From: a virus
Lineage: Duplodnaviria; Caudoviricetes
Virus record (IMG/VR): IMGVR_UViG_3300046697_000236
Coordinates: 1-58,275 of that record
Reading direction: 5' to 3' (one strand)
Length of the DNA: 58,275 nucleotides
Positions 24,501-55,341 of this stretch are shown in pieces. A program made the position numbers and the translations under genes. Positions within the stretch are counted from its first letter, which is position 1; each line of letters begins with the position of its first letter. The notes under the pieces were generated by a model that ran no database searches, was not told the DNA's origin, and worked only from the letters and a program-made list of their open reading frames with translations.

Positions 24501-27500
24501 CTAAGGTCTTCGTCTCCATTTAATATACTATTGGCTGATTTCAGCTCTCCTTTTCTTGTCTTACTATTTTTGGCATATTCATTCGCAGACTGAATCCTAT
24601 CCATAACCCTGTTTTTTGTAGTCACAGGCACCGTGGCAGACTCCTTGCCCATTATCATTGATGGTTTTACATAGGTCAACGGCTTCTTGGTCAGTCTTGG
24701 ATGTTGAACAAACTCAGCAAATTCCTCATTGGTCATTGTGGTTGTTGCTCCATGTCCAACCCAGTCAATAGAATAATTCTCACGGTAGGCATGTTCAGCT
24801 GCAGCCTGATATTTAAATCCGATCATGGCTTTGTACTCGTCAAATTCTCCGGAAGGGTCAACCTGATCAATAATATAGGTGTTCTTTGAAGCTAAATCGG
24901 GACCAAGGAAAACATCAATATGTTCGCCGGTACGATCTTTCGTTCCAAGAATATACCCATAAGGATTCTTCATTTCGGTTTTCCATTCCCTGCCTTGGGG
25001 GTCGGTTCCGGTTCTGACTGATCCGCGCGGGTTCTCAATAGAAATAGTCAACCCATTAATGTTCATCTTGCCTTTCGGGTAGTTGCCTGCTTCGATCTGT
25101 GCCTTGGAAGGATTCATCTCTGTTTCCTTTTCGGCTTGATCTAATTTCTTTTGAAGTTTTACTTCTTCAGGTGTTTGAAATATTCGACCTGTTCTAGTCT
25201 CTTCTTCGCCTGTCCCTTTGATAGGTTCGGTGCTGATAGGTTCTTGCCCTTTTCCGATACTACCTTGTATCCCTGACTTGTTTTTACTAACATTTGATTC
25301 TGGTTTTAATTCATCATGTTTTCTTTCCTCTTGCCTTCTGCTATATTCTTCCGGATTTTCTTTTTTAAGTTTCTCCATTTCGGCATCCGCTTCCGCCCAA
25401 TCATTTTTTCGGGGAGTATTTCGAAACTCTTCAGCATCTTTGGCAATCTTCTCTCGCGGTTCAATATCAGCGGGAGAGCCAGCACCTTGTTCAACCGGGT
25501 GCTGTACTCCAGATACATTTTCCTGAACAGGAGTAGTAATCTGTCCGCCTTCGGGAGGTGAACCCTGGTTCCCCTGAGTTCCAACCTCTTTTTCTTTTGA
25601 TAATATTTGCCAACCTGGAGTCATTTTGTTTCCAGTATTAACTTTCTTTAGTTCTAATACGAAATCGTCACCAATTTGCTCATTTAACTTATCAATTGCA
25701 ACTTTAGCCTCCGAGAACGTCATCATTTGTGAAAGCGATTCCCCCTTATTTTGTGTAGGAGTGAAAGTTGCTGCATTCTTATCTTCATATTGCACAACTA
25801 CTGGTTGCGGTTGTGCCTGTACTTGTTGTTGCGCTTGCTGTTCGACTTGGTTCTGTGTGGCTTCATCAATGTTCGGAGGGATGATTTGATCGTAATCCTT
25901 AGGATCAATATCAATTGAATTCTGACCTTCTACTGCAATTTTAATCCTTCCGTTCTGAATCTTCCGTATTCTTCCTTCCCTGCCACCAGAGAGCTGTATC
26001 ATGTCGCCCGCCTGTAGTTTGTTTACATAAAATTCGGTTAATTGATCTTTGATTTTATCAACAGGATATGCTTGTTGCATGTTGGCAACTTCTTTTTGAA
26101 TATATTCATCTTTGGTGAACTCACTAACAGGTGTTAGTTTATCATTCAGAATCATTTTTTTCTTTCCCTCGATAGGGTCATATACTATAGATGTCTCGTC
26201 ATTTAATGCACTAATCACATGAACGGGATTGCCTTCTATGTCTGTAGCTGTCTTAACTGTACCGGTGGCCTTGTCAGCATTTTGATTATAATTATCATTG
26301 GCTTTTTGATTATATCTGTTATTCCATGCTGTTTTTTCCGCATCTTCGAGTCTTAGTTGTCCGTTCGCCAATGTTTCTTTTATCCGTGCAGCGTCTTCTT
26401 TGGTTATCCTAACCGTGTTATTTAACTGATCCATAGAAACTGACCCAATAGATCCATCACTATTCACTATCTGAACTGGGACGTTTCTTTTAACATTGGC
26501 TTGTTCGTCACCTTCAAGCGATTCCCATGTTTTCCCATATAGTTTTTGAGAAATATTATCAACAATTTTATTCATGTTGGGATTACCCAACACAGCAACA
26601 ACACTTCCATCATCGGTCCTTGTGCCAAGATTATACCCGAATTTGTCAAAGTTTTCCTGTATGTTTTTAGGGAAACCTTTCATTGCGCCAACACCACCCA
26701 TAAATCCACCCATCAGCATCATGGGAAGTGCACTCGTGGCGAATATTTTCCCATAGTTTTTCCAATCATCAATCTTACCTGTGGGTAGCTCGTTAATAAA
26801 TTTAGTCGATGCTGCTAGCCCCCCCATGGTCAGACCGGCATTAATGCCATTTTTCAGTGCGGCGTCAGCAATATTCTTAAGCATATTTGGTGCTTCGGGA
26901 GCTGATGTAAGAAATTTAGATATGGCATAATCTGCAATTTCGGGATCAAGCTTCATTAATTGTGTTGCCGCAAAATCAGAAAGATATTTTCCCTGCATGG
27001 ACTGGGCAAGCTTCCCTCCCCATTGGCTCATAAATATTTGATTTAGTGCCCCTGACATTAATACCGCCCCTCCTTTTAGATATGGATTAATGTCCTCCCC
27101 TGTTTGTTTCTGATAATCATCAAGATTCTTAAGCGTTCCGCCCATTTGGTCCGCGGTCATTGTTCCAATCATACCTTGAGTCAATGCCCGACCTACAGTT
27201 CCAGATATTCCACCTATACCTTCACCTACCCCACCAACCGCAAATAAAGCTATAGGAAGTATCTGTTTTACAGCCTCCGCCCATCCCGTTGTGTTTTCCC
27301 CCTGCTGCATCCACCGTGCTCCCGTTGTTTGCATTTTGTTGCCAAGGTCGTCTTGGTTTAACGTGGAAATTTGTCCAAGAACTTCGGGTGTTGTCTTATT
27401 AGTACTTGGCGTTTCTGCTGGCAGGAATAATCCTCCGCTCATTCCTCCAAGACTGCCGATATTTTCAGCTCCTGTCTTGTAATCAGGAGAAATCAGCTCA

Positions 27501-28369
27501 CCAATACCTTTATACAACTCCTTTTCGGACCGTAAGCGATTGTCTTCGGTCTTTAAATCCATGTAGGTTCTTTTGTTCCATGGATGATCAATATACTTTT
27601 GATCCTCATCAATCCCCTTCATTAATGCAGCTTCTTGTGGAGTACCTTTTAAAATAGACGATAAATTATTCAGCTCTTCTTTGGCTGATTCAAGATAATT
27701 TATCTTCTTATCCATGTCGTTAATAAACGAGCCATTAGTAATTGTCTGATTCTTATCTAACCAATTATTTGAAAATGCATTATGTTGATTTTCAACATCT
27801 TTCGATTTGTTAAAATAGTCCTCCGGATTGTCTCCCAAATCCTCAAATTTAACTCCTTGGGTTTCTAGTGTTTTTTTAAGACACTCAAGCTTAGCTTGAC
27901 CTGAAAGATTTTTTACTGCTTCACCTGCTCCATAAAGTATTGGTCCTACAGTACTTTTTCCAAAAGCTTCTACTCCCTGCAGGGGGGTTGTTAATGACTT
28001 GATTTCTTTGGGTTGTTTATACGAGGGATCCATCCATTCCGCTGCTTGCTCTGAGGCAATATTCGGGAGATTTGCGGCTTGATTAAATTCATTACCAACA
28101 ACATCTGATCTGTCTTTATTTGTTATTGCCCAAGAAGGAAGCTTATTCTCTATTTCAGGACCTGATGCACCTTGGTCTATTTGGCTATTTTGTTTATTTT
28201 CCCCAATGCTTGCCGAACCGCCAACTTCTTTTCCTTTGGGAGAATAACCGTATTCTTCATCAATAAGCTGGTCGTCTGTTTTTGGAACAGAAGTATCAGC
28301 CTCTGGGTCTTTAACCTGAGAATTGTATAAAGAATCAAACTGCGCGAGTTCTTCCGGAGTAAAAGGCAT
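15545..28369 (-). CDS. Giant polyvalent (probably ejected) protein with PPase-like, zincin peptidase, JAB/RadC and LPD38-like domains
   Basis: YGYILGT..GEHIDVFLGP (~24750-25120), HEVGMHYGLR (~23760), HNHPSG..PSGEDI (~19685), LPD38-like C-terminus. Confidence 0.75.
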   Translation of the reverse strand: MPFTPEELAQFDSLYNSQVKDPEADTSVPKTDDQLIDEEYGYSPKGKEVGGSASIGENKQNSQIDQGASGPEIENKLPSWAITNKDRSDVVGNEFNQAANLPNIASEQAAEWMDPSYKQPKEIKSLTTPLQGVEAFGKSTVGPILYGAGEAVKNLSGQAKLECLKKTLETQGVKFEDLGDNPEDYFNKSKDVENQHNAFSNNWLDKNQTITNGSFINDMDKKINYLESAKEELNNLSSILKGTPQEAALMKGIDEDQKYIDHPWNKRTYMDLKTEDNRLRSEKELYKGIGELISPDYKTGAENIGSLGGMSGGLFLPAETPSTNKTTPEVLGQISTLNQDDLGNKMQTTGARWMQQGENTTGWAEAVKQILPIALFAVGGVGEGIGGISGTVGRALTQGMIGTMTADQMGGTLKNLDDYQKQTGEDINPYLKGGAVLMSGALNQIFMSQWGGKLAQSMQGKYLSDFAATQLMKLDPEIADYAISKFLTSAPEAPNMLKNIADAALKNGINAGLTMGGLAASTKFINELPTGKIDDWKNYGKIFATSALPMMLMGGFMGGVGAMKGFPKNIQENFDKFGYNLGTRTDDGSVVAVLGNPNMNKIVDNISQKLYGKTWESLEGDEQANVKRNVPVQIVNSDGSIGSVSMDQLNNTVRITKEDAARIKETLANGQLRLEDAEKTAWNNRYNQKANDNYNQNADKATGTVKTATDIEGNPVHVISALNDETSIVYDPIEGKKKMILNDKLTPVSEFTKDEYIQKEVANMQQAYPVDKIKDQLTEFYVNKLQAGDMIQLSGGREGRIRKIQNGRIKIAVEGQNSIDIDPKDYDQIIPPNIDEATQNQVEQQAQQQVQAQPQPVVVQYEDKNAATFTPTQNKGESLSQMMTFSEAKVAIDKLNEQIGDDFVLELKKVNTGNKMTPGWQILSKEKEVGTQGNQGSPPEGGQITTPVQENVSGVQHPVEQGAGSPADIEPREKIAKDAEEFRNTPRKNDWAEADAEMEKLKKENPEEYSRRQEERKHDELKPESNVSKNKSGIQGSIGKGQEPISTEPIKGTGEEETRTGRIFQTPEEVKLQKKLDQAEKETEMNPSKAQIEAGNYPKGKMNINGLTISIENPRGSVRTGTDPQGREWKTEMKNPYGYILGTKDRTGEHIDVFLGPDLASKNTYIIDQVDPSGEFDEYKAMIGFKYQAAAEHAYRENYSIDWVGHGATTTMTNEEFAEFVQHPRLTKKPLTYVKPSMIMGKESATVPVTTKNRVMDRIQSANEYAKNSKTRKGELKSANSILNGDEDLRNKYEITTDTDGDSFLIDKYSRKPVRRDVVKTARTEIESHPSLKEYDDPKFVEFVNTLLTDPRGKFWGVSNVGGEQATRDITKGKKSVASNKALDELKRQFDGNTIRAEKRNIPVDEWMDSMGDLNALSDISPNLIEDIEVPFKNEEEEIVPSKTFIDPKPTDNEVENITSMFNALDQFSENRPEILVHSFEDRLFKPNTSYSGGYFHGIRTAEFITDKIINSKERKDLGLSVSEYSKYLYVHEVGMHYGLRGILPEADIKQLCEKVFDYAENNDKAAFDRLKRLYPKAEKWQLGEEYLTHIAEKMHMEGELNFTKPEAKAWIQFLRNLRETIRKIFGKDIPLAYEDLKKIVHAAFNYHLTNSETTFKNEDINKTTEEDQPDLFSSVPGRDDNGLEAMGNGMAESGRSTIQNGNRLSEGGRPGIQESENTNVSPMVDNNKIEKKGILVSDQRRIKEAEANIQNLKDKIKQIARDKQAKINEIANRTQTQQSLAGFEGKKAVQQSMFDVNPDIDIENIKRILDPFEADKARVEAEIIRNHKLIEGIKRTAGDQWVLFKVEEIGTPIFHRGTEIHKIENQFSLKNEDFQDDNIYVSRGFISALKRGSIPTDDTTSEFHHYFVKDAERGFKAKKIYFKDQSLFKNESTEVFYSNTLRAIDKIQQEKATSEQWMAMLLKNGAKQSEMDWMGLPEFLKENPKLTKSDLTKFVNENKVELKEVVKEQAKVSQNDLDRINELTELRQKRRFTPEESKEFNTINDRLQIGSTDNTKFKGYVLPGGKNYKEWLLTMPSKPMTFEEYKNDSARNGVVFGSEERAKESYSEYLKEPGTDISKKENFKSSHWDEPNVVAHIRSQEFDEPDGTKSLVKEETQSDWQQKGRKEGFNSDESKAIRKKLHDEWTTVENEMIPLQKKSREGTELTQKETARLFELEKRDKELAEENKKLGLNPAPDMPFKNTEQITGLAFKRMLRYAAENGFDRICWPTGEQQAERYDLSKQVDSIHYDPLIKQLSARKGTQQVLKEQGVVPEKIADYIGKDAANKLLSSEINGAGNYELVGDDIKTQAPGMVGYYDKIEPSWIVKYIKPMGGVVGKHTLPNGVTLHSVEMTPAMLETGLGEQSMFKNEEESTLPEEKEQEVKPLPTFMQPVGRWEHPLDKVTNPMGGIQYLHPRETILNSIQPYHYKINAGLTGSTFLGNLNQAIEPTTLDKYPTLKGTQVAIYIRADFTQPGGWFDRGIRFGKPQLFIKAKSQEQASLMLSEGIKYLMQEVDNGNMSDPQPTGFEKLGFGGLNQIEKKHAGTGLYFVAHKNAGQLQYRLFKGTDPSKTILPDWDKKLPISIYDNLLKTAQDNPIAHKFLPNIIALKNSNFGQIYNNLSHFSDDSTVNEILREAGIKGWKRTEGDDTEYVVPDNSDLSIDHVQLLEPNVEYSQKDDIFVQVLNDAVNKLQDSDNINKSYGSKSFLQEYFQKAIDEAVMESKPKNTMGAGKQLSFDFVGRYNIPDQSSTEIPENHIIQGFAESLHISFAGQVIKFPRDIAQLFSLQRSPYIEKGHVVFVDKSGKIIANHSETLGIPSATSLGSKIDDTHDDNFIQIARMAKELNADVYLLHNHPSGNHLPSGEDIRATKNIAAQLTSGSEFKGHIIIDHNKFTIIYANGEFEEKEYKEPVDKLILPTPKVNDVILMTQFAKRLLTEKQLPSAIIMLNSQLKVAGYIPLLNSDITLLINEINEHVKNAGLYAAKHYAIVHDGSIKTTSLLKEQRSLSDGLIDIIDTKINQSYNSVIFQSPVQIRPVIKGYRLGEPEQRYLSEGIEKAVSIFGLTKNIRNAGFILPDGRMLNFVKDGRRLEHINIAKAFADFEAKPLEDQSHDKYDEARTYLERFIHDGAIRISAGDGMVEMNQHPTDEQLKLIGEALGDYRSRIFIDVHHDNGQTNSIEIPTAKGAEDIISEIKSKLNEPVEKKNYVSPVNAFFKNEEDPDQLMNEYLKDHMGNRRYLSIEEAIREAVQDTMLPVKKFMFDVVRAGGKITDDMDVWAKANSAASIMMSKDKELKTDFIEPFLDIAMKTAHEAGVDEQKLQEYMRAKDAIGRNKFKRIQNKDTEPKVYAGSIGNNPLTDDFAQRIINDLESKVDKKTIEKFWDQWRDLTDKNIDMNVEFGMLSISDGQKIKASWKDYVPQRGWKDDQSELFDYQNTQMGGAFNGLQKAKGRESQSADPIAQMINMAQCTIAYGVKNTYNQSMLHFVEANQLTKEGKPLLKGIVEPREVYYIKTKDEDGNESIEETYEKPKAELLKSGRAALKLFAEHKRLRPAEVAKQHEVPVMINGNKVRLVFGNEKMGSLVEVANALNKNNIQTISLAKLLDAPSKFLGRTTGWLSRSATGWNLAFQIPNLLRDLQYAWQANALFNNQGWAYAKNMGRALATIKDSFGKHFDPSTNPDHALYKLYTDNGGPTGFVNAQKISAIEKDLANVYKRYTGTNGILDKIGQSSALRWSKETFEKLSSFSEQTARFATFVTSIEKGRSVLTAIKDAKDVTSNFDTKGTLGKILGANYMFFNPSIQGADHALRMSGVGHEYDFPYTNEKGEYEEGKSNKQRNQRRKAMGVDALGWMVVGYFTAWVNSTIGNIDPVDGKPYYEKISPYVKHNNMIIPTMNEGHHVSIPIGFYFRNWYGLGAGLYEIVSGQTELGTGIGQALNGFTNAFAPVDVGGFVDRKGDFSCRPLIPGYGMGIHDLWSNEDYAQHTITREPFSQALEKVLPSSSLGKENVNPLIKGMTDFSFYVAGGNPNKHTLVNQRSELRGIQENVWKIADWNPSKVEYFLQYYTGGLGQFFNQLYKTTTHAVAAGTNIVSGKDAPFEKAGFEINDIPIFNRFYRNTYGDADMQEFNKLREENAAAKQNYSISTPAEIANYMSHPETARLYLRYKFMDNIEKHERKVSKLENKVDESNKDLITADETQENKIQLKKERADRIHNYLQMIKEADDAADNELKKHKP

Positions 28370-35284: not shown

Positions 35285-36121
35285 TTACATTGGTGAATAA
35301 ACAGACTGCCGGGATTTATCATCTAGAGGATTATAAACTTGGCTGATGTCCTGGTTGTGGTAATAATGCAAAATACTTTTAATTGATCTGTGTCCGGTCA
35401 TCTGCATTGTCTTTGGCAAACTTGCGTTATCAACCAACTTTGTAATGTATTGATGTCTGAAGCTGTGAGGGGTTATTTTCCTGCCGATCTGCGTTTCGGC
35501 TTCATGGAGTACATTTCTTATGCTTGTCTCAGAATATTGGCCTCCATTTGGATTTTCAAAAAGATACTCTTTTGGATTAAACCTTTTAAGATATGCCAAG
35601 ATATATTTTTTCGCTACCTCATGAATCTGAACATCCCGGTTAATTCCATGCTTTAAGGTGTGAATAAAGATTTTGTCATGGATTAAGTCTACTTGAGATA
35701 ATTTGATATTGAGTAATTCCGATATTCTTATGCCAGTCGAAAATAGAAGTATTGTAAAAGTTTTATGTTTCAGATTACTGATTGATTTCATTACAGATAC
35801 AAATTCCTCATAGGTCATTACTTGGTGAAATTTCTTTTCAGACTTAATTGGAACAAACCAATTCATTTTGTTTGGCTGTTTCAATACTCGTTCATAAAGA
35901 ATTTTGGCTGCACTGCAAATCACATTATAATAGGAATCTGAATACCGTTCCCGGAATCCCGAAAAGTATCGTTTCAAATCAAGTTCAGACATTCTATAAA
36001 CTCGCTCGTTCTCAGAAAGGAATTTATTCTTTACTGATTTGTAGTTTTCTTTTGTTATTTCCGACAGCGGCATGAGTCCTAATTCTATGGCATACCTTTT
36101 ATTTAACTCTGACAATTCCAT
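35285..36121 (-). CDS. Tyrosine recombinase; integron-integrase-like (cassette recombinase)
   Basis: GIRISE (R), TLKHG (K), HSFRH, GHRS, HYYH and C-terminal NPLD; adjacent to attI-like site and cassette array. Confidence 0.9.
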   Translation of the reverse strand: MELSELNKRYAIELGLMPLSEITKENYKSVKNKFLSENERVYRMSELDLKRYFSGFRERYSDSYYNVICSAAKILYERVLKQPNKMNWFVPIKSEKKFHQVMTYEEFVSVMKSISNLKHKTFTILLFSTGIRISELLNIKLSQVDLIHDKIFIHTLKHGINRDVQIHEVAKKYILAYLKRFNPKEYLFENPNGGQYSETSIRNVLHEAETQIGRKITPHSFRHQYITKLVDNASLPKTMQMTGHRSIKSILHYYHNQDISQVYNPLDDKSRQSVYSPM

Positions 36122-36147
36122 ATAAAATGATTTTAATTATCAAACAC

Positions 36148-36181
36148 TTACCTTTATTGTAATTAATATATGTTATGTGGC
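36148..36181 (+). other. attI-like site; crossover G/TT at 36172/36173
   Basis: AT-rich aattaatatatGTTATGTGGC 51 bp from the integrase start; no hairpin to its left; core complementary to GCCACATAAC at 36339. Confidence 0.75.
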
Positions 36182-36328
36182 ATTAGGCTTCGGTGCATTC
36201 ATTTCTCGCACCAATTCCATTATCTTCTCCATAACTTTAACAACATATTTTTCACTACATTCGGTTTCTATTTTTACACCAGCCCGAACCAATGGTGCTT
36301 CAATTGTAATTTTATATTTATTGTTCAT
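36173..36328 (-). CDS. Cassette 1 hypothetical protein (51 aa)
   Basis: MNNKYKIT...; stop TAA is the TTA of the recombination core. Confidence 0.65.
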   Translation of the reverse strand: MNNKYKITIEAPLVRAGVKIETECSEKYVVKVMEKIMELVREMNAPKPNAT

Positions 36329-36338
36329 AATAATTAAC

Positions 36339-36463
36339 GCCACATAACAACGTGTATAAAACATTGCCCTTCGTGGTCTTTTTTTAGTTTATATTAATTT
36401 TATAATTCTGTTCATTCTATTAAGTTCTGTGTTGGCAACGTTTCATACACGCAGCCGTTAGAG
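36339..36463 (+). repeat. attC-like site 1
   Basis: GCCACATAAC-cgtgtataaaacattgcc...ggcaacgtttcatacacg-cagcc-GTTAGAG. Confidence 0.85.
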
Positions 36464-36540
36464 TTCAATCGGATTGCTCGCACTAAGCCCTCCCGCTGCA
36501 ATCCGAACGAGAAAGCAAAATTAAAATAAATGCCACCCCA

Positions 36541-36873
36541 CTAAAAATAATTAACCTCGTAACTTACTTTCATTCCTTCATCAAAAGAATATAGAGGCGA
36601 AGGAAATTCAAACGTAACAATACGTTCTCCTTCAATGGTATCGTTATCTACATACCATATTTCTTTGTCTGGATATTTTTCGCATATAATACGTTTGAAT
36701 CTCCTTTTGCTAAGATCATTTAATAAATATCCATATCCTTTTTTGATAAGTCGATCTTTAATTATTTCTTCTTTTTTCGCCTCTATATCTGAGGCCTGTT
36801 TCATCAATAATTCATTTAATGAGCGTTGTTTATCACCCATCTCCGAAAATAATGATTCTAAATTTTTATCCAT
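36541..36873 (-). CDS. Cassette 2 hypothetical protein (110 aa)
   Basis: ATG 36873 preceded by GGGAGGT. Confidence 0.7.
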   Translation of the reverse strand: MDKNLESLFSEMGDKQRSLNELLMKQASDIEAKKEEIIKDRLIKKGYGYLLNDLSKRRFKRIICEKYPDKEIWYVDNDTIEGERIVTFEFPSPLYSFDEGMKVSYEVNYF

Positions 36874-36971
36874 ATTACCTCCCAAATTTATTTTAATTAA
36901 GCATCTTTTCTCTTTGAACTCTAACGATCAGTAGCAACAGCCCATCTACATAGTACCCACGCAATCCGACT

Positions 36972-37076
36972 GACTCTAACAAGACCTATCAGCGATATAT
37001 GCGCTGTACTTCGGGGCTGTTTCAGCTTTACTTTATGCGAAGCGCATAAACCGCTGATAGCTCCTGATCGTTAGTC
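36972..37076 (+). repeat. attC-like site 2
   Basis: gactcTAAC-ctatcagcgatatatgcgct...agcgcataaaccgctgatag-ctcctgatc-GTTAGTC. Confidence 0.8.
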
Positions 37077-37200
37077 GCAAACCGCTTGCACCCCAATGAT
37101 GCCCGAAGCGGTCATCCCCTTTAACACACACGGGCGAACAAAACAATGAAATAAAATAAAATTAGTTTTACCACCACACATCGGATTGTACCAATCCGTG

Positions 37201-37230
37201 AAAATAAGGGCTGCTATCATACAGCCCCTA
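37201..37230 (-). terminator. Intrinsic terminator-like hairpin inside cassette 3
   Basis: GGGCTG-tatgatag-CAGCCC-TTATTTT on the minus strand just after the cassette 3 gene. Confidence 0.55.
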
Positions 37231-37245
37231 TCAATATTACCTTAA

Positions 37246-37461
37246 TCAATCCTTAAGGTCAACCAATATCCAACTATCAGCCGATACCAGTTCACTCCTG
37301 CCATTATTCATGCAGGTTTTTTTTCCATTTAATTGAGCAACTGAATCTATTAAATCTAATAGATTCCCTGATAATTGATCAAGTTTTTCTGTCTTGTCGA
37401 TAAGGGTTTTTACTCTGTTTTCAAGAAAATACACCCTGTTTTCTAATTTTTCTTTTGTCAT
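37246..37461 (-). CDS. Cassette 3 hypothetical coiled-coil protein (71 aa)
   Basis: MTKEKLENRV...; A-rich upstream region. Confidence 0.65.
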   Translation of the reverse strand: MTKEKLENRVYFLENRVKTLIDKTEKLDQLSGNLLDLIDSVAQLNGKKTCMNNGRSELVSADSWILVDLKD

Positions 37462-37638
37462 ACTTTTAATTGTTTTAAATTTATAATAAAGATAATAAAA
37501 AAATAAAAATTTCCTTCCCAAAAAACTAATTTAATTTATTTCAAAGTTTCTTTGTTCTTTTGCGACTAATGGCCGAGGCTGAGAGGCGTAATGTAATACG
37601 GCTTCTTTCTGTATCATATTACCCTTGCAAGTGGTCAG

Positions 37639-37743
37639 ACGACTAACAGGTCTGTAAACGTAATCGAGCGTATTACAAAAGCCTCAAACTCTCGTCGGGC
37701 AAAACAAAACGCCCGACTACGTTTACAGCCTCGGCCATTGGGA
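37639..37743 (+). repeat. attC-like site 3 (non-canonical A/TT core)
   Basis: acgacTAAC-ctgtaaacgtaatcgagcgt...acgcccgactacgtttacag-cctcggcc-ATTGGGA. Confidence 0.8.
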
Positions 37744-37880
37744 AGAATTATGCTCGCACGGCTATCCGCACAAAGCATCCACCTTCCACCACACTCACCA
37801 AAAGCAAATTCTTCCCAATGAGTCGGGCATAAGGCCGTCCGCACATTCCATCTATGACTTGCGCCTCCCCGCAAAACTCT

Positions 37881-38129
37881 CACCAACAAGTCATAAATGA
37901 AATAAAATCTATGACTTTTTTCGCCACCACTCACATGATCTATATGAACGTAGTACCCTAAATAACCCAGTACTATTATTAATATAATTTAATACGCAAA
38001 CACCCTTCTGATATTTGACAACTCTGTCATAATAATCACAGTTTGTACATTTTTTTTCCATATTTATATAATTTACATTTCGCACAAAAGTCATAAATTT
38101 TACATTCACTTATGCCCGACTCGTTACCT
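37881..38129 (+). repeat. attC-like site 4 with a gene in its loop
   Basis: cacCAAC-aagtcataaatgaaataaaatctatgac...gtcataaattttacattcacttatg-cccgactc-GTTACCT. Confidence 0.7.
37909..38061 (-). CDS. Cassette 4 small Cys-rich protein (50 aa)
   Basis: MEKKCTNCDYY...C...CEWW, possible zinc-binding. Confidence 0.6.
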   Translation of the reverse strand: MEKKCTNCDYYDRVVKYQKGVCVLNYINNSTGLFRVLRSYRSCEWWRKKS

Positions 38130-38666
38130 GCAATGCCTTTCAACACTTGCGATAGTGTCGTGAATAGCCCCGCCATGTGAAAATAATGCAATTCGCTCAA
38201 CATTAAAGCCTCTATTAACTCCCATTGTGTTACTGTGGTAGCCGAAGGTTATTACAAGTCCATTTGGTTTTAGTATTCTCGGTAGTTCATCTTTAAGTTG
38301 GCGAAACGGTGAGGCTTTAATACCTTTGTACATTTCCATACTTTTACGATATGCGTATGGCGGGTCTAACAAAACCGTAGCAAACCTATCTCCATTCCAC
38401 TCTTTTACAAATTGTAGCGCATCTTTGTTATAGTCTGCCAACGCTTCAATATCAAGGTCGTTTCTTATTTCATCTATATTTAGCTTTGTTTTGCCAGCAA
38501 ATAAATTAAGCGTCTTGCCTTCGCACGTTTTTTCAGTCCACTCCCTAATAGGTTTGATACTAAACGTCCATCTACTTAATGGGCATTTTATGTAATCGAA
38601 CAACGGCACAGCAGGTAACACGGTATATAGTGCATTGCTTCCGTTCTCTGTTTTTAGTTTATCCAT
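38124..38666 (-). CDS. Cassette 5 DNA adenine methyltransferase-like protein
   Basis: LNLFAG (motif I) and LDPPY (motif IV); starts in the attC loop and stops in the core. Confidence 0.75.
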   Translation of the reverse strand: MDKLKTENGSNALYTVLPAVPLFDYIKCPLSRWTFSIKPIREWTEKTCEGKTLNLFAGKTKLNIDEIRNDLDIEALADYNKDALQFVKEWNGDRFATVLLDPPYAYRKSMEMYKGIKASPFRQLKDELPRILKPNGLVITFGYHSNTMGVNRGFNVERIALFSHGGAIHDTIASVERHCR

Positions 38667-38732
38667 AATTTTAACTTTTGTATTTCAATTTTAGTTTTGT
38701 GATGCAACGCACCATATACCCAATCGTTATAC
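38611..38732 (+). repeat. attC-like site 5
   Basis: GCAGGTAAC-ggtatatagtgcattgc...gcaacgcaccatatacc-caatc-GTTATAC. Confidence 0.85.
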
Positions 38733-38817
38733 CGCAATCCTTCCCAGCTCACACAATCCACCCCCAAAGTATTGCGGTATAACGGGCGAGCGCATTCGCA
38801 CACCGCTGTGAAGGACA

Positions 38818-39071
38818 GCGGATAACACCACATAAAGCAAATTTTATAATCTTAAATTTCACGCACAATCTGTTTTTCATCTATTTCTATCATTGAATCA
38901 TCATCAAAATCATCTCCATCGTAATACCATGAATTAAACATCCAATGCGCAACGTGCCAAAATGGTTTATCTGACCATTTATAACCTAATACCCAATAAT
39001 AACCATCTTCTCTTTTCATATATCCAAAATTTAAAATTATAAAACTTGCCTTATGCGCTCGCCCGTTATGT
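38818..39071 (+). repeat. attC-like site 6 with a gene in its loop
   Basis: gcggaTAAC-cataaagcaattttataat...attataaaacttgccttatg-cgctcgccc-GTTATGT. Confidence 0.75.
38852..39019 (-). CDS. Cassette 6 small Trp-rich acidic protein (55 aa)
   Basis: MKREDGYYWV...; the longer track start crosses the cassette boundary. Confidence 0.65.
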   Translation of the reverse strand: MKREDGYYWVLGYKWSDKPFWHVAHWMFNSWYYDGDDFDDDSMIEIDEKQIVREI

Positions 39072-39137
39072 TCAATTAAATATTTTAAAAGTTTTTTGCC
39101 CACGCTCTCTTTCAATTTTTTCAAAATTGTGAAAAGG

Positions 39138-39716
39138 TTAGTTAAACCATCTAATTACTGTTTCGCCTTTAAATCCTTTCTCCCAAACATACCACGCATA
39201 GCAATTAGCAGAAGGTGTATTGTATTTCACAAAGTCTGCATTTTTAGCTAACAGCAATCTACTGCTGCTCACATAAACATATTTCGGAGGGTATGCTTTC
39301 AAAAATGGTTTTCGCCTTTGTCCTTCTAAAAATTGTATTCGCATAAGCATTACTACTTTACTTCCATCATCTACTAATCTCAATGCGTGTTCGCAAAATT
39401 GTTTCGCATCTCCGTATGGTGGGTTGGTAAGTATATCTCCATTCCAAGTTTCTAATTGCTCATACAAGTTTATTCCTGTTTCGCCATATCCTCTATCAAT
39501 CAAATCACTTGCCCTGCCAAGCAATCCTTTTGCTTCTAACACCTTTGCTAAATGCCCTTCACCACAGGCACACTCCCAAACATTTTTCAATTCTATTTCG
39601 GGCAAAAATATTTCTAATGCTTTCGGGTCGGTTGCGTAAAAATCATTTTCTTCTCTTTCTCCGTCAGCGTGAGCAGATGCTCCTAATGTTGTAAAATCTC
39701 CTTTTTTCATAATCAT
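39138..39716 (-). CDS. Cassette 7 N6-adenine DNA methyltransferase
   Basis: DFYATD, WECACGEG and LTNPPY motifs. Confidence 0.8.
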   Translation of the reverse strand: MIMKKGDFTTLGASAHADGEREENDFYATDPKALEIFLPEIELKNVWECACGEGHLAKVLEAKGLLGRASDLIDRGYGETGINLYEQLETWNGDILTNPPYGDAKQFCEHALRLVDDGSKVVMLMRIQFLEGQRRKPFLKAYPPKYVYVSSSRLLLAKNADFVKYNTPSANCYAWYVWEKGFKGETVIRWFN

Positions 39717-39806
39717 TGTTTTAAGTTGTAAATAAATCCCACCGCACCCCTCTCAAAAAAACTTTTAAAATATTTAACTGCCCTTCGCTCGAAAACCCTA
39801 CGCACC

Positions 39807-39880
39807 AACATAACACCGTATATACGCTATTCTCCCACCCACAAGCAACGCACAACAGCGCATATACTTTTTCGTTAGGT
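39807..39880 (+). repeat. attC-like site 7
   Basis: AACATAAC-gtatatacgct...agcgcatatac-T-run-c-GTTAGGT. Confidence 0.8.
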
Positions 39881-39886
39881 GCAATA

Positions 39887-40786
39887 TTAAAAAATAGCCC
39901 CACCGCACATCGGCTTTTTCAAAGCCGTTTGGATAGCTACATCGTAAGTTACACCATTGTTTTTATAATTCATTCCTATTTCAAATGCTTTTGGTTGTGT
40001 TTCTTTTAATCTTATAAATCTATCGTCTTTGTGGCAACCAAATCCACAAATCATACAGCCTGTCTGTGTTTCTCCTTTGTCGTAAATTTCACAATACGGT
40101 ATTTTGTTTTGTTTTATAAAGTTCCATTTATCTTCATCAGTCCAAATACTTATCGGATAACTTGCAGGTCTATTCACTTCAAAAGCATTGCATCCAGTAG
40201 TTAAGTATTTTTGTAGTCTTAATCTGCTTTCATTTACAGAAGTTCCGATAATTGGAAATAGCTTATTTTCTTTTTCATACTTGTATGCAGGTCGCTTCTT
40301 TAAGTGGTAACAGCATTTTTCTGAAATATCAAATGGTGTATTTATTAAGTGTTGCCATTTATTTGATATTTTGCCCTGATTTCCTTTTCTGCCATTCAAT
40401 CTAAGTTCTAAAAGTTTTTCACTTTTTGTTGTTCTTGCTTCCCTTATGTATTGTGCCTGTTCTTTTGATATTAAGGGAAATCCACATTTTTCAATAACTG
40501 ATTTTAAATTCATTTCAGGCTGTATTTTCACACAGTCAATTTCTTTTATGAACTTATAAATCTCTGGAAATTCATTTGTAGTATTGAAAAATACTGCTTT
40601 AATATCAGGTTTAATAATCCTTGCTAAATGCAGTAATATTGTGCTGTCTTTACCTCCACTAAAAGAAACATAAGCATTTCCATTTGAGTAAGTCAAAGCA
40701 TTTTCAATAGTAAAAAGTGAATGGTCAATCTTTTGGTCAAGTGTCCAATTCAATCTTTCGTTTAATATTTCTCTTGTAATTATCAT
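39887..40786 (-). CDS. Cassette 8 PAPS reductase family protein
   Basis: SFSGGKDS PP-loop, SEKCC and TGCMICGFG Cys motifs. Confidence 0.85.
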   Translation of the reverse strand: MIITREILNERLNWTLDQKIDHSLFTIENALTYSNGNAYVSFSGGKDSTILLHLARIIKPDIKAVFFNTTNEFPEIYKFIKEIDCVKIQPEMNLKSVIEKCGFPLISKEQAQYIREARTTKSEKLLELRLNGRKGNQGKISNKWQHLINTPFDISEKCCYHLKKRPAYKYEKENKLFPIIGTSVNESRLRLQKYLTTGCNAFEVNRPASYPISIWTDEDKWNFIKQNKIPYCEIYDKGETQTGCMICGFGCHKDDRFIRLKETQPKAFEIGMNYKNNGVTYDVAIQTALKKPMCGGAIF

Positions 40787-40835
40787 AATGTGAAAATAAA
40801 AATTTCCCACGCTTCGCTATTTTTTAAGTATTAAT

Positions 40836-42097
40836 GCAAAAGAAATCCCCTATCCCTTTAGGGTAGCGGGATGAATTTTGCCTGTTTTTGTTTGTTATTA
40901 TGGTTATTAATCGTATATTTGCATTGTGAGAGCGTATAAATTCAGAATATATACTACAAGAAAACAAGAGGAGTTGCTGCAATTCACTCTTAATCATTGC
41001 CGTTGGCTTTATAACACAGCGCTTCAACAGCGAAGGGATGTTTATAGGAGTACGGGCAAAAGCATTGGTTATTCCATCCAGCAAAACGAAATGCCTCTTT
41101 TGAAAGATCAGTTTCCCGAATACAGACAGATTCATTCTCAGGTCTTGCAGAGCGTTCTTAAACGTGTTGATCTGGCCTACCAAAGTTTCTTTCGCAGGAT
41201 TAAGCAAAAGGGAGAAAAAGCCGGATTTCCTCGCTTTCACGGCAAAGAACATTACGATAGCTTCACCTACCCCCAAAGTGGTTTTTCGTTTACTAAAGGC
41301 AAAAACAGGATTAATCTTTCCAAGATAGGACTGGTAAAAATTAAACTTCATAGACAAATTCCTCTTGGCACTCAAATAAAAACCTGCACAATTAAAAGAG
41401 AGAGCGATAAATGGTATGCCATTTTCTCCTGTATGCTTTCTAATCCAGCCCCAAAAAAGAAAGCCGTTACAAATGTTATCGGTATTGATCTGGGGTTGAC
41501 CGATTTTGCCGTATTGAGTAATGGAGAAGAAATTGCCAATCCCAAATATCTGAAACAGTCTGAGGATAAACTTAAAGAAATTCAAAGCAAGTACTCTAAA
41601 GGTAAAAGCAAGAAGGTTAAACGACAGATTGGTAATCTTTATCATAAAATCACTAATCAGCGCAACGATTTTCAGCACAAACTTTCTTATAAATTGGTAA
41701 ATACTTTTGATCTTATTGCTTATGAAGATTTGAAAATAAAACAAATGATTGAAGATAATAAATTCAATCTTCAAAAACATATTTCCGATGCCGCTTGGGG
41801 TAAATTTATTTTTATGCTTAAATACAAAGCTGAAAACGCTGGTAAGTATTGCATAGCAGTAAATCCAAAAGGCACAACGCAAAGGTGCAGTCATTGTAAC
41901 TCTGTTGTGAAAAAAACGCTCTACGAACGCTCTCACAAGTGTCCTGCTTGCGGTTTTGAAACAACAAGGGACATCAATGCTGCACTGAACATTGAAAAGC
42001 TGGGTATCAGCTTGGTTGATAAATCTGTATGTTCTGATATAGTTCATCCTTTTTTGTTTTCCGAAGCCGCTTCGCCTTTAGGCAAGCGGTAGTTCAC
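40836..42097 (+). mobile_element. IS200/IS605-family element, TnpB only (IS1341-type), inserted in cassette 8
   Basis: Subterminal hairpins with ctttagg loops at both ends, right end ...ggtagTTCAC, upstream TTAAT; left boundary approximate. Confidence 0.8.
40926..42092 (+). CDS. tnpB: RNA-guided endonuclease TnpB
   Basis: AYKFRIY HTH, GIDLG / YEDL / RDINAALNI RuvC motifs, CSHC..CPAC zinc ribbon; TATATTTG promoter just upstream. Confidence 0.93.
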   Translation: MRAYKFRIYTTRKQEELLQFTLNHCRWLYNTALQQRRDVYRSTGKSIGYSIQQNEMPLLKDQFPEYRQIHSQVLQSVLKRVDLAYQSFFRRIKQKGEKAGFPRFHGKEHYDSFTYPQSGFSFTKGKNRINLSKIGLVKIKLHRQIPLGTQIKTCTIKRESDKWYAIFSCMLSNPAPKKKAVTNVIGIDLGLTDFAVLSNGEEIANPKYLKQSEDKLKEIQSKYSKGKSKKVKRQIGNLYHKITNQRNDFQHKLSYKLVNTFDLIAYEDLKIKQMIEDNKFNLQKHISDAAWGKFIFMLKYKAENAGKYCIAVNPKGTTQRCSHCNSVVKKTLYERSHKCPACGFETTRDINAALNIEKLGISLVDKSVCSDIVHPFLFSEAASPLGKR

Positions 42098-42103
42098 TAC
42101 AGA

Positions 42104-42234
42104 CACCTAACACGTGCTATAAGCAATAGCGGGTTCGCTGGTTATTTGAAGTTCTGTATCTCGTTCAATCATTTATTGTAATTTGAAAGTTTATCACTCG
42201 TATTCCGCTACTGCTCAGAGCACCACCGTTAGCA
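42104..42234 (+). repeat. attC-like site 8
   Basis: CACCTAAC-gtgctataagcaatagcgg...ccgctactgctcagagcac-cacc-GTTAGCA. Confidence 0.85.
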
Positions 42235-42240
42235 GTAATA

Positions 42241-43089
42241 CTACATTCCATCTCCGAATAAAGTTTTCTGCGTTAAATCTTTTTCTTTTCTTTTTTCTCC
42301 CGCCCTTTTTAAAATCAAATCAATATTACTTTGTTCTTTATCAATTAGTAGGTAGTTTCTATTTGTATCAATGCAAACAAGTCCAGTAGTTCCACTTCCT
42401 GCAAAGCAATCCACTATCAAATCACCTTCGTTGCTAAAACTTTTTACAAAAAACTCAACCAACTTTTCAGGGAATGTTGCTGAATGGTCGCTCTTTAAAG
42501 TAAATTGGTTGCTTACATTATTTACGTTTACAACATTTGAAGGTCTTGCAAATTCAAGGTTTCTTATATTGGTTGTGTTCATTCCTGTCATACCACTTCC
42601 GTTTTTTGGCGCACCACATTGTTTTCTGTATGTTCTTGCAATACTTTCTTCCTTCATTGGCGTTCCGCAAGCAATCGGGTTAAATGTTATTTGGTTTGGG
42701 TTTCCTTTTGTAAAGTGGTAAACAGGCTCAAAAGCGTTTTTAAACCTACCTTTCAAACTACCTGGAAATGCGTTTTTAGTCCAGCAATATTCTTCTACAA
42801 ATAAAAATCCAAGTTCCTTTTTTAGCATAATAACCAATTCAAAAACGTATAAACTTCTTTCTCCTTTATTGGTATGCGGTTTTATATTCAAAAAGAAACT
42901 ACCAGTTGGCTTTAAAACCCGTTTAACCTCAATCGCAATAGGTTTGAACCACTCTAAATATTTATCTTCTGCAATACCACCATAGGTATTTTTTCTCCTA
43001 TCTGCATAAGGTGGCGAAGTAAATACCATATCCACGCTATTGTCAGCAAGTTTTTTTAGTTCGTTTTCACTATATCCGTGTATTATCAT
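42241..43089 (-). CDS. Cassette 9 beta-class N4-C/N6-A DNA methyltransferase
   Basis: FTSPPY, HSATFP and DCFAGSGTTG motifs; start probably MIIHG. Confidence 0.88.
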   Translation of the reverse strand: MIIHGYSENELKKLADNSVDMVFTSPPYADRRKNTYGGIAEDKYLEWFKPIAIEVKRVLKPTGSFFLNIKPHTNKGERSLYVFELVIMLKKELGFLFVEEYCWTKNAFPGSLKGRFKNAFEPVYHFTKGNPNQITFNPIACGTPMKEESIARTYRKQCGAPKNGSGMTGMNTTNIRNLEFARPSNVVNVNNVSNQFTLKSDHSATFPEKLVEFFVKSFSNEGDLIVDCFAGSGTTGLVCIDTNRNYLLIDKEQSNIDLILKRAGEKRKEKDLTQKTLFGDGM

Positions 43090-43186
43090 ATTTTTAATTT
43101 TTTCAAAATTATTTTTGCCATCGCTCAAAAAAAGAAAAGAAAAAGGTTCGGTTCTTCGATTGAGCATTTGTGGTTTAAATCCGTAC

Positions 43187-43220
43187 TACTGCTAACATCG
43201 TGCTGAGAGGCGTAATGTAA
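43187..43220 (+). repeat. Left arm of attC-like site 9 (right arm not found)
   Basis: TACTGCTAAC is the reverse complement of GTTAGCAGTA at 42228. Confidence 0.6.
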
Positions 43221-43308
43221 AAACCAAGCAATGTTTTTATCTGTTTGCGTTTTAGAATTGTAACCAGTTATTTCTTTTTGTTTTGGTAATTTTTCTGTTG
43301 TTGTCATA

Positions 43309-43452
43309 TTATTTTAATGATTTTATTAATTCTTCCAGTTCATTTGTTTTTAATCCACGCAAGTATGCATCGCTATACCCTTTTTTTAACAACTCTTTTC
43401 TCATAGCAAGTCTGCGAGTATATTCCTTCCCGGCGTAAGTGCTTATCGGCAT
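43309..43452 (-). CDS. Small hypothetical protein (47 aa; not in ORF track)
   Basis: MPISTYAGKEYTRR...; fills the gap in the early operon. Confidence 0.45.
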   Translation of the reverse strand: MPISTYAGKEYTRRLAMRKELLKKGYSDAYLRGLKTNELEELIKSLK

Positions 43453-43455
43453 GTG

Positions 43456-43971
43456 CTATCGCTTAGATTTACCTTTGAATTCAATCTTCTGATTTTTTTC
43501 AACAAATTGTATTTCGCCGGATTGCAGTTGTTTTACGGTAGTATCAAAAGTACACGTATTGGCATATTGCTTCTGTTCCTTCCGATAAAAAAATGCCTTT
43601 CTTCCAATTTCGTCCCATTCTTTTTCTGTGGTAGTTCTATGATTCCACGCTATCATCCAGTCGGGTTCTTGATCCGCTTCTGCTTTTCTAAAAAACACCT
43701 TCTTAAAATTAACAATCAGTGTTTTGGAATTTAACTTATCTAATTCAATTGTTCCTCCGGCAATTTGAGCGAAAAATGTTACGAGCAAACCACGTCTATA
43801 GTTTCCGTAGCGGGATAAAACAAATTCCATAAATTCCGATAGCCATGTTGCGAAATGGGTTCCGTCTGGTTTTGCCTGCCCTATCGATACCATTGTTTTT
43901 GCCATAAGTTCCGCAATTATTTTTCTCAAGTCAATTTCTGGCAATTCTTTTATTTTTAAATTATTATCCAT
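43456..43971 (-). CDS. Hypothetical replication-associated protein
   Basis: Overlaps the end of the initiator-like gene. Confidence 0.5.
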   Translation of the reverse strand: MDNNLKIKELPEIDLRKIIAELMAKTMVSIGQAKPDGTHFATWLSEFMEFVLSRYGNYRRGLLVTFFAQIAGGTIELDKLNSKTLIVNFKKVFFRKAEADQEPDWMIAWNHRTTTEKEWDEIGRKAFFYRKEQKQYANTCTFDTTVKQLQSGEIQFVEKNQKIEFKGKSKR

Positions 43972-50633: not shown

Positions 50634-51467
50634 TTAAATATTCGGGTTAACGATCCATGCTCTCCCGAAGCGTGTCTTATGAGTTCCGGAAGTAGTATAA
50701 TCTATTCTGTAAAATTTGAAATAAGCAAACACAGGAGAAAAAGATTGTTCGTAATCTGCTCTGCTTAATCCAACTTTCTGAATCGTTATCCACTCAGTGC
50801 CATTATTCGATCCTTTTAGGTAAGCAAATCCAGACATAGTCTGGGAGGCCACGGTATCGACAAGATAAAATGCAGTCAATGTTCCATAATAAAGACCAGC
50901 ATTCAACATCGACAGTGTACCAAACGCAGTGTTCTTTATGGTGATGGAATCTTTTGTAGGTTTTGTGTATACTGACAAATAATCACTTTTAAAGAACGGT
51001 CTGTTCTGAATCATATATTCATGAGTGAGTGGTTTTTTGTAACAATAAGCCAACCCATATCTGTTTTTAGCAGATCCGGTTTGAACGATTTTTATCCGAC
51101 TATACAGGGAATAAAAATTCGCTTCGGTAATTATAATAGATGAGTCTTTGGCTTTGATTAAGGCCACGGAGTCACGTGTTATCCAATTCACGCTATCAAT
51201 AGAACTTTGTAAGTAAGCATAACCTGCGAGAGTATTAGCCCCAGAATGTGCGACTGAGTCGATGAGTATCTGAAAGGAGGCCGAACAACTATAGTGCGCC
51301 GTGTAGCATGGGATAATCTTCGTTACCGCATTCACGGTAGTATCCTTGTAGGGTATGCTTTTCGTGTTACCAAGATCCGATTTAGGAAAATAGGTCTTAA
51401 TAGCACCCTGCTGTGCAAATCCTGAAATTGTCAGAATCAAAAATGCAAATTTTATTAATTTTTTCAT
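50634..51467 (-). CDS. Signal-peptide protein with two related beta-domains
   Basis: MKKLIKFAFLILTISGFAQ; AYLQSSIDSVNW and AYLKGSNNGTEW repeats. Confidence 0.6.
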   Translation of the reverse strand: MKKLIKFAFLILTISGFAQQGAIKTYFPKSDLGNTKSIPYKDTTVNAVTKIIPCYTAHYSCSASFQILIDSVAHSGANTLAGYAYLQSSIDSVNWITRDSVALIKAKDSSIIITEANFYSLYSRIKIVQTGSAKNRYGLAYCYKKPLTHEYMIQNRPFFKSDYLSVYTKPTKDSITIKNTAFGTLSMLNAGLYYGTLTAFYLVDTVASQTMSGFAYLKGSNNGTEWITIQKVGLSRADYEQSFSPVFAYFKFYRIDYTTSGTHKTRFGRAWIVNPNI

Positions 51468-51633
51468 GTTGTTTTTGTTTTTTATTATTTCCAAAGTTAA
51501 TTATGTTTTTCTTGTTTTTGCTTCAATTCTCTTAAATATTTTGTAAGTTCCTTCATGCCAGCCTCTGCGCCTTTTAAAAACTCAGGAGATCCTTCCATCT
51601 TTCCTACCAGCATTTCTATAACATCTGTTATTT

Positions 51634-52317: not shown

Positions 52318-52328
52318 TTCTTTATTTT

Positions 52329-53385: not shown

Positions 53386-53390
53386 TATAA

Positions 53391-53687: not shown

Positions 53688-53700
53688 ATAATTTAGCACA

Positions 53701-53724
53701 AAGAAACCGCTTCGCCTTTAGGCG
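53701..53724 (+). mobile_element. Orphan IS200/IS605 end fragment
   Basis: ccgcttcgcctttaggc is identical to the IS right-end hairpin at 42067-42083. Confidence 0.55.
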
Positions 53725-55181: not shown

Positions 55182-55182
55182 A

Positions 55183-55338: not shown

Positions 55339-55341
55339 ATA

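Follow-up and report, generated by a model that had tools for sequence, protein, structure and literature searches.

The virus record IMGVR_UViG_3300046697_000236, a complete sequence of 58,275 bases with direct terminal repeats that was analysed over its whole length (the window), contains an integron-like array of at least nine cassettes at ~36,172-43,196, adjoining the gene for a Xer-like tyrosine recombinase. Four of these cassettes (C2, C3, C4, and C6) carry an antisense copy of their own [cassette end + cassette start], and the question raised by this locus is what these copies, initially regarded as possible splints for circularisation, stand for. With a probability of roughly 60%, they are the outer 5' arms of two-tier attC-like sites in a phage integron-like array and supply a full R box plus a clamp to sites whose inner R'' is weak. 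The outer arm is a variation of the known attC design and not a new type of element, as only the duplication and the perfection of the antisense copy are unusual. The surrounding array system is the larger finding, above the outer arms themselves.

Each of the four elements is the reverse complement of the cassette end joined to the cassette start, as originally predicted (18/18, 23/23, 26/27, and 25/25 positions); the prefix of this reverse complement fits the cassette end, and its suffix fits the cassette start. In C2 (36458-37070; all cassettes, sites, and arms are given on the + strand), the outer arm is located at 36914-36931, with R''out at 36914-36924 and a flush clamp at 36925-36931; the prefix is found at 37064 and the suffix at 36456. 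The arm of C3 (37071-37737) lies at 37559-37581 (R''out 37559-37569, clamp 37570-37581; prefix at 37726, suffix at 37071). The last base of C3 is A, not G, and the 23/23 fit of its element includes this atypical base, as had been pointed out before. In C4 (37738-38123), the element at 37807-37833 (prefix at 38109, suffix at 37736) has a single mismatch at the base before TT, with T in the element and G at the cassette end. The arm of C6 (38727-39065) spans 38771-38795 (prefix at 39053, suffix at 38725).

The four elements are far beyond chance. Within 36101-40000, there are three exact start/element/end triplets (18, 23, and 25 nt), whereas dinucleotide shuffling gave any triplet of at least 15 nt in 4 of 200 cases (longest, 16 nt); elsewhere in the window (1-35000, 40001-43500, and 43501 to the end), no such triplet was detected. 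Metagenomic contigs from the runs X3-X5 cover parts of the array. X3 and X4 are peat metagenomes, too, and may belong to one campaign; their contigs are 100% identical to the window over 37593-37771 and 37809-38012 (X3) and over 36919-37208 and 37426-37692 (X4). As several of the sites are thus covered by contigs of two other runs, they are not an assembly artefact.

Single strands were folded with DNA parameters, both as circular and as linear cassettes. In the predicted circular folds, the arm paired with the junction over 18/18 positions in C2, 22/23 in C3, and 25/25 in C6 (the latter on both strands), and over 27/27 positions on the top strand (including one G.T) and 26/27 on the bottom strand of C4. 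Forbidding this pairing cost 19-25 kcal/mol (C2: 23.6-24.3 kcal/mol), and the bottom (-) strand was the more stable one in all four folded cassettes. In the fold of the linear array, the arm halves paired with their own cassette start and their own cassette end, flush at the crossover, and not with the R box of the neighbour. The predicted folds reproduce the geometry proposed at the outset: the partner of the element is the rejoined junction in the circle and, in the array, the abutting start and end of its cassette. The linear-fold geometry results from perfect complementarity and, taken alone, does not speak for a function.

The layout of the array is common to related phages. The recombinase has 21 homologues at 42-83% identity, four of which are encoded on readable phage contigs of 27-59 kb (L002-L005; recombinases 41-48% identical to that of the window). 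In each of the four, an array is located directly 5' of the recombinase gene; its segments are bounded by 9-10-bp inverted repeats (GTTA+N5-6 ... N5-6+TAAC) and separated by stretches of ~47-140 nt with conserved flanks. Between the start codon of the recombinase gene and the first G|TTA, a stretch of ~50 nt is conserved in 5/5 arrays with the aligned motif TTATTG..TTTAAT.A..G|TTA; in the window, it occupies 36122-36172 and ends in the G|TTA of the first cassette. A cargo segment is next to this region in every array, and different first cassettes follow one shared flank in L004 and L005. The ~50-nt region probably functions as an attI site.

Arm complementarity is blind to the crossover frame, because a crossover at [G/A]|TT on the + strand and its mirror image, with the crossover at the elements on the - strand, each imply the other. 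Relatives and metagenome contigs place the crossover at [G/A]|TT on the + strand, and the cassette boundaries stand as first proposed. L004 and L005 have flanks that are 100% identical, and one unit of ~455 nt differs in position between them. Both of its breakpoints fall inside TAA|C of the locus strand, corresponding to G|TTA on the + strand of the window, and the unit consists of a cargo segment plus the attC-like site 3' of this cargo on the window's + strand. Contigs of runs X4 and X5 match the window rightwards from 38122 and diverge leftwards, and an X5 contig diverges leftwards of 39873 (X5 breaks at 39873-39876). In run X5, a contig contains 39757-39876, i.e. R'' and site of cassette C7, followed by a C4-like cassette start that departs from C4 at its fourth base; hence, a cassette of the C4 type is found at more than one array position. 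Before TT, the X5 contig has G and the window has A, so the crossover lies between this base and TT. None of the breakpoints compared (L004/L005, runs X4 and X5) coincided with an outer arm.

The mirror frame, in which cassettes would extend from the elements on the - strand with open reading frames (ORFs) in canonical orientation, was ruled out by the L004/L005 unit being cargo plus the following site, by the X5 contig that keeps the C7 R'' and site in front of a different cassette, and by the cargo segment that is always next to the attI-like region. With the crossover frame at [G/A]|TT on the + strand, the ORFs lie opposite to the canonical strand. The core reads G|TTA or A|TTG, which fits only loosely to the RRRY of G|TTRRRY; as in integrons, cassettes are bounded by a G|TT core, and single cassettes are gained or lost. 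A search of viral contigs with a degenerate C4-start motif gave no match.

The antisense relation is not restricted to the four elements. Fourteen aligned typical sites have a common design. A short unpaired spacer separates the N6-TAAC R'' box from a 14-bp stem, which is capped by an AT-rich loop; past the stem come a second unpaired spacer, longer than the first and ending in CG, and then TTA+N6. Their stems contain two conserved A.C mismatches and a conserved GTATA/TATAC L box, with compensatory changes in 11 of the 14 stem pairs. Cells assigned to pairs were complementary in 96.0% of cases versus 71.6% after shuffling (0/500 shuffles reached the observed value) and 24-37% with the partners slid. 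A covariance model (R1) built from these 14 sites was applied to the window and the close loci, where it detected 35 sites (E ≤ 1); none of them shares the strand of the recombinase gene. When complete records were searched, the four relatives had 13, 3, 14, and 7 sites; 75 loci with more distant recombinases (1.01 Mb) yielded none. Four sites with E ≤ 1e-5 were found in the window (36339, 38610, 39805, and 42102), exclusively on the + strand. In each array cassette of the window and L002-L005, the R'' next to TAAC is the exact antisense of the cassette's own start over 9-10 nt, whereas it matches the arm of the adjacent neighbour at a mean of only 1.07/6 positions. Conservation is limited to the 4-nt core and, in typical sites, the L box; the arms vary from site to site. 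Imperfect palindromes with R and L boxes, an unpaired spacer, and a structure that is more conserved than the sequence make the typical sites comparable to integron attC sites.

The assumption that canonical integrons have no such element could thus not be maintained. The attC of a cassette is, by definition, whole only in the circular form (as stated in Joss 2009, PMC2674596), and the R''-L'' arm of an integron attC pairs with L'-R' (as described in sections of Nivina 2016, PMC5027507). For these reasons, an antisense copy of the circular junction is normal attC design, and every typical cassette of this family of arrays has one.

In C2, C3, C4, and C6, the element comes on top of an inner hairpin with its own, weaker R''-like box, in agreement with what had been noted from the window. 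The inner box of C2 (36972-36980) is complementary to the cassette start at 8/9 positions, and its stem is formed by 36986-36994 and 37052-37060 (model R1: 15.8 bits, E 0.1, over 36971-37079). That of C3 (37640-37647) fits at 8/8 positions but would pair with G where the cassette ends in A (stem 37652-37662/37718-37728; 10.4 bits, E 1.1, over 37638-37746). C4 has a degenerate inner box (37877-37887, 7/10 complementary) with a stem at 37910-37919/38086-38095 (10.5 bits), and C6 a box with a one-base deletion (38818-38826) with a 29-nt stem of 90% at 38831-38859/39027-39055 that gave no match to the model. All of these scores refer to an unfiltered 6.6-kb search with R1. As in typical sites, the inner boxes of the four cassettes are followed by C-A-nnn and an L stem. 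An assignment of C4 and C6 to a separate class that has no inner site was ruled out by the degenerate inner boxes and stems present in both.

The outer arm is always on the 5' side of the inner box, at a core-to-core distance of 43-77 nt in the four cassettes of the window. It is composed of an R part of 11-14 nt and, gaplessly fused to it, a clamp of 7-15 nt that is rich in GC and complementary to the sequence immediately 5' of the crossover; in typical sites, this sequence forms the unpaired spacer. The arms are GC-rich in a genome of ~35% GC, and no decay was observed in any arm of 18-27 nt.

Altogether, 11 distinct two-tier cassettes were found in four phage genomes, with outer arms of 18-27 nt that are perfect, flush, and GC-rich. 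A stringent scan for outer arms in five records (262,348 bases), with a threshold above the 18 nt of C2, gave 21 intervals, 18 of them GC-rich (0.42-0.68) and three AT-rich. Comparison of the coordinates with the array maps located all 18 GC-rich intervals inside arrays, and they corresponded to 11 outer arms (10 distinct) and seven matching + sites. In a looser genome-wide scan for triplets, AT-rich background prevailed at lengths of 18-20 nt. In 10 of the 11 two-tier sites, an R''-like inner box could be read in front of C-A-nnn and an L stem, whereas in K1 this box is indistinct; the outer-to-inner spacing amounted to 184 nt in one relative. What is conserved in two-tier sites is the architecture and not the sequence. 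Typical sites outnumber them, with 35 model matches at E ≤ 1 versus 11.

The recombinase gene (35285-36121, - strand) codes for a protein of 278 amino acids (Pfam PF00589, 83.5 bits), and its 5' end points towards the array. The best NCBIfam match was archaeal XerA (112 bits, cut-off 220), with lower scores for TIGR02249 integron integrase (66.8, cut-off 265) and NF011946 (36.9, cut-off 435); the closest solved relatives are the XerA proteins 5hxy and 4a8e. Residues 209-246 of IntI4 (2a3v; 38 residues) have no counterpart in the aligned phage recombinase. R132, K157, H219, R222, H244, and Y253 are invariant among 22 homologues. Judged by its sequence, the enzyme is Xer/IntI-like but not an IntI, since the IntI-specific insertion is missing, the scores are below the cut-offs of the IntI models, and XerA is nearest. 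No close relative of the recombinase was found in the phage collection; a metagenome scan revealed only two further short close loci (L021 and L022), which contain no array sequence, and in a genome scan the top matches, from DPANN archaea and a Chitinophagaceae metagenome-assembled genome, did not exceed 32% identity. By analogy with integrons, the adjacent recombinase would serve the sites of the cassette array.

In the mechanism that we propose, cassettes would be cut and joined at [G/A]|TT, and the crossover would split the 3' arm of a site between two neighbours; owing to this split, the 5' arm reads as antisense of its own cassette end plus its own cassette start. Typical sites would pair through a 9-10-bp R box and an imperfect covarying L stem, with an unpaired spacer between them. 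In the four cassettes, a second R'' placed 43-77 nt further 5' would be fused gaplessly to a GC-rich clamp on the normally unpaired spacer, and in single-stranded DNA this outer arm would close a perfect stem of 18-27 bp around the weaker inner hairpin, the R'' of which is often degenerate. The outer arm would in this way supply or strengthen the R box and the fold. A general need of the element for cassette movement, as implied by a splint that guides circularisation, is not in accordance with the cassette shifted between L004 and L005, which has a short typical site and no outer arm; since cassettes that have no outer arm have moved, the arm is not required for mobility.

Several points weigh against the outer-arm interpretation. 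The inner hairpins fit the covariance model weakly (15.8, 10.4, and 10.5 bits with E 0.1-1.1 for C2, C3, and C4, and no match for C6), and because of these weak scores the two-tier structure is in part deduced from motifs read by eye. The perfection of the arms is partly an ascertainment effect, as they were found by a search for perfect complementarity. In BLAST comparisons at E ≤ 1e-3, 0 of 45 pairs among 10 two-tier sites were similar, leaving no homologous pair for covariation; for the same reason, homology of two two-tier sites in the record G001, suggested by a short common motif, was dropped. The outer arm in L003 falls within an ORF of 81 amino acids. The activity of the recombinase and a folded single-stranded substrate are assumed by integron analogy, which is incomplete because the ORF strand is opposite to that of canonical integrons. 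Finally, pairing of the central spacer is unfavourable for IntI1, as is a perfect hairpin (according to sections of Nivina 2016, PMC5027507), which opposes a simple 'better arm' unless an enzyme that lacks the IntI insertion behaves differently.

Findings with IntI1 would also be compatible with a lock or brake, in which perfect pairing of spacer and R box, with the cassette ends tied, disfavours recombination or favours its reversal and stabilises cassettes in the array. A perfect hairpin would favour the reverse reaction, and a mutant IntI1 was required for VCR2 when its central spacer was paired (sections of Nivina 2016, PMC5027507); moreover, the linear fold ties the arm halves to their own start and end and not to the R box of the neighbour. 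We nevertheless consider a brake unlikely: the C4-like cassette at another array position in run X5 implies that at least one two-tier cassette type has moved, and the rules established for IntI1 may not transfer to an enzyme that is not an IntI. It is rather doubtful that the outer arm is a cis-acting guide, which would set the cassette's own crossover points flush on one template or clamp the circle junction and thereby allow excision and re-insertion independent of the neighbours. Similarly doubtful is the corollary that the enzyme, having no IntI domain that reads extrahelical bases, would use a self-contained substrate at the cassette level, which is not known in integrons.

The idea closest to the original prediction, a self-splint, appears improbable. 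On a single-stranded array, the element would hold both crossover points on one template, pre-aligned for a strand swap that releases the circle. The predicted linear fold does set start and end flush on the element at the crossover, and the layout recurs in 11 distinct cassettes, but typical cassettes are mobile and have no such element, as is the case for most sites (the 35 model matches against 11). To our knowledge, no tyrosine recombinase acts on such a double-flap substrate. Still less probable is a relic of the making or repair of cassettes or sites, e.g. by templated synthesis that copied the 3' arm past the junction of the circle, with no present function. The copy is exact, reaching from a few bases inside L' via spacer and crossover to 11-14 nt of the start, and an older-looking inner R'' persists beside it. 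The identical layout in 11 cassettes with no mutual sequence similarity argues against a relic, as do the outer-inner distance of 43-77 nt in the window, the GC-rich arms in a genome of ~35% GC, and the lack of arm decay; recurrent layout, spacing, and GC-richness suggest selection.

A role at the RNA level, with the repeats pairing the message ends of a - strand transcript and affecting its stability, processing, or conversion to circular RNA, has very little probability. The cassette ORFs are mainly on the - strand and, as read from the alignment, the A.C mismatches conserved on the + strand of typical sites turn into G.U-compatible positions on the - strand; on the other hand, the conserved core coincides with breakpoints of DNA rearrangements, and the arms flank non-coding segments as well as ORFs. 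An inversion system of the shufflon/inverton type or pdif-like Xer modules, with double-stranded sites that flip or swap modules, would account for the alternating site orientation, for inverted repeats around every segment, and for a Xer-like recombinase, yet it is highly implausible, as the arms are not conserved between sites in the manner of protein-binding half-sites, the segments shared by arrays of the four relatives compared are all co-linear (every BLAST match plus/plus, none inverted), and the rearrangement seen is the insertion or deletion of a unit.

The array resembles integrons in several respects. Like integron attC sites, its sites have G|TT bounds, a 3' arm split by the crossover, and a 5' arm complementary to the cassette's own start; they comprise an R box, an unpaired spacer, and an imperfect covarying L stem, and the bottom strand is predicted to be more stable. 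As in integrons, an attI-like region is found beside the 5' end of the recombinase gene, and the array is read away from this gene. In contrast to integrons, the recombinase has no IntI-specific insertion and scores far below the IntI cut-off, the R arms comprise 9-14 nt instead of 7, the ORFs are on the opposite strand and not on the attC top strand, where integrons have promoterless ORFs expressed from Pc, and some of the sites possess an additional outer arm that is perfect and flush. Instead of extrahelical bases as in IntI substrates, typical sites show two conserved A.C mismatches.

Other systems share single traits with the array. At attP(+) of CTX-phi, XerCD recombines a hairpin folded from one strand of the phage DNA, which serves as a single integration site for the whole genome; a Xer-family enzyme and a one-strand hairpin are in common, and the array of cassettes sets the present system apart. 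The pdif modules of Acinetobacter plasmids are bounded by Xer-type sites of alternating orientation in double-stranded DNA, with conserved XerC and XerD arms; the arms described here differ at each site, are conserved only as complements, and have no 11-6-11 dif-like structure. Segments present in both orientations, as expected for shufflons or invertons, were not found among the four relatives compared. The PeSL cassettes of T4-type phages are small genes shuffled between stem-loops in a hyperplastic region by an exchange thought to be homology-based, with neither a dedicated site-specific recombinase nor a conserved crossover core. Small phage genes as stem-loop-bounded units are thus a common trait, and the putative dedicated recombinase and the conserved core distinguish the array from PeSL.

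Clusters of attC-like sites with DNA methyltransferase cargo and no IntI occur in virulent phages, and the Bacteroidota phage Polaribacter P12002L has attC sites in divergent directions; integron tools served to detect these phage sites, and IntI1 to test them (main text of Qi 2023, PMC9892861). The sections concerned describe neither a dedicated phage recombinase nor an attI for these clusters (Qi 2023, PMC9892861), whereas a recombinase and an attI-like region are both present here. Supplements of that study with site lists and boundaries might already catalogue related phage sites. A full-text search of the articles themselves retrieved no description of a second or outer R'' arm or of two-tier sites, and none of a phage Xer-like recombinase with its own attI-like site and array or of a reversed ORF polarity.

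The extent of the array to at least 36,172-43,196 follows from the covariance-model sites and cassette arms that reach that far. A chain of inverted repeats runs without breaks from 36171 to 39777, with arms meeting at the GTTA/TAAC core, and 21 of the 60 inverted repeats of at least 11 nt in the whole record fall in 36-40 kb. The cargo includes two PHROG DNA methyltransferases, one PAPS-reductase-domain protein, and one N6/N4 methylase. In the window array, six ORFs of at least 60 amino acids (677 amino acids) are on the - strand versus one (99 amino acids) on the + strand, and in 5/5 arrays such ORFs are mainly opposite to the canonical-integron strand and on the same strand as the recombinase gene. 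The TAA of the crossover core doubles as the stop codon of many cassette ORFs. In the sense direction, each cassette is ordered site, then ORF, and a promoter belonging to the cassette could reside in the AT-rich loop of its site. The small ORFs of C2, C3, C4, and C6 had no match in Pfam, NCBIfam, or PHROGs, and no relatives of the C2 and C3 ORFs were found among viral contigs. An Rfam search of the window gave zero matches, and the phage collection contained no close DNA relative of the window.

Cassette C1 (36173-36457) has 10-bp arms at 36172-36181/36339-36348 and a typical attC-like site at 36339-36466 (model R1: 115.1 bits). C2 codes for 114 amino acids on the - strand (36541-36885), and the ORF of C3 is at 37246-37521 on the same strand. 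C4 combines a hairpin segment with a 57-nt loop (37738-37819) and a long segment, perhaps with a small ORF; C6 has a hairpin segment with a 32-nt loop and a long segment. C5 (38124-38726), which has no outer arm, contains a DNA methyltransferase ORF on the - strand (PHROG 11619, E 1.7e-41) and a typical attC-like site at 38610-38735 (106.1 bits). C7 (39066-39874) contains a methyltransferase ORF on the - strand (39138-39716) and a short typical site at 39805-39883. C8 (39875-42228) holds the PAPS-reductase-domain ORF and an ORF of 407 amino acids, with a typical site at 42102-42237, and C9, read from its start up to the R'' box (42229-43196; arms 42228-42237/43187-43196), holds the N6/N4 DNA methylase ORF on the - strand. 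C7 is irregular in that a 22-nt inverted repeat (39076-39097/39756-39777) begins 10 nt inside the cassette and the GC-rich stretch after it has no counterpart at the cassette end, while the R'' of its short typical site fits the true start at 39066; C7 may be a fused or rebuilt cassette.

Some further observations were made in the window and its relatives. GCGAAGC-like motifs, read by eye, are found in loops, linkers, and clamps of two-tier sites (37040-37052 in the window and several in G001); GCGAAGC forms a very stable DNA mini-hairpin. ORF-less mini-cassettes with 10-bp arms and a loop of 60-62 nt recur across phages in L002, L003, and L005 (e.g. L005 locus 9872-9951; L002 locus 3349-3428 and 2307-2387), one pair being 97% identical between L002 and L005. 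The R arms GTTATGTGGC and GTTACCTGC are common to the window (36172-36181 and 38123-38131) and L004 (locus 6158 and 7319), with cargo of different length; despite these common R arms, no similarity between the window and L004 arrays was detected by BLAST. A second cluster of typical sites is located on the opposite strand at G003:C1:54948-58860 and G004:C1:45582-46274, far from the single recombinase gene of each record. In G001, sites are present at both ends of the linear record (G001:C1:332-5322 and 51171-57711); if this record is circularly permuted, they form a single ~12-kb array that accounts for about one-fifth of the genome. Outside the array, the window contains a single ORF of 4,274 amino acids at 15545-28369 (-). 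A 154-nt low-depth contig of run X1 matches only 39085-39128 (44 nt; three mismatches and two gaps), with unrelated flanks.

If the array works as inferred, it would represent a phage-borne integron analogue that runs on a Xer-like recombinase without the IntI signature domain and has a cargo of DNA-modification genes (three for methyltransferases and one for a PAPS-reductase-domain protein in the window). Such an analogue would bear on the origin of integrons and attC sites and on the shuffling of anti-restriction genes by phages. As one array holds sites both with and without a perfectly paired outer stem, the two-tier sites would be a natural experiment on the roles that R box and unpaired spacer play in recombination sites of the structure-specific type.

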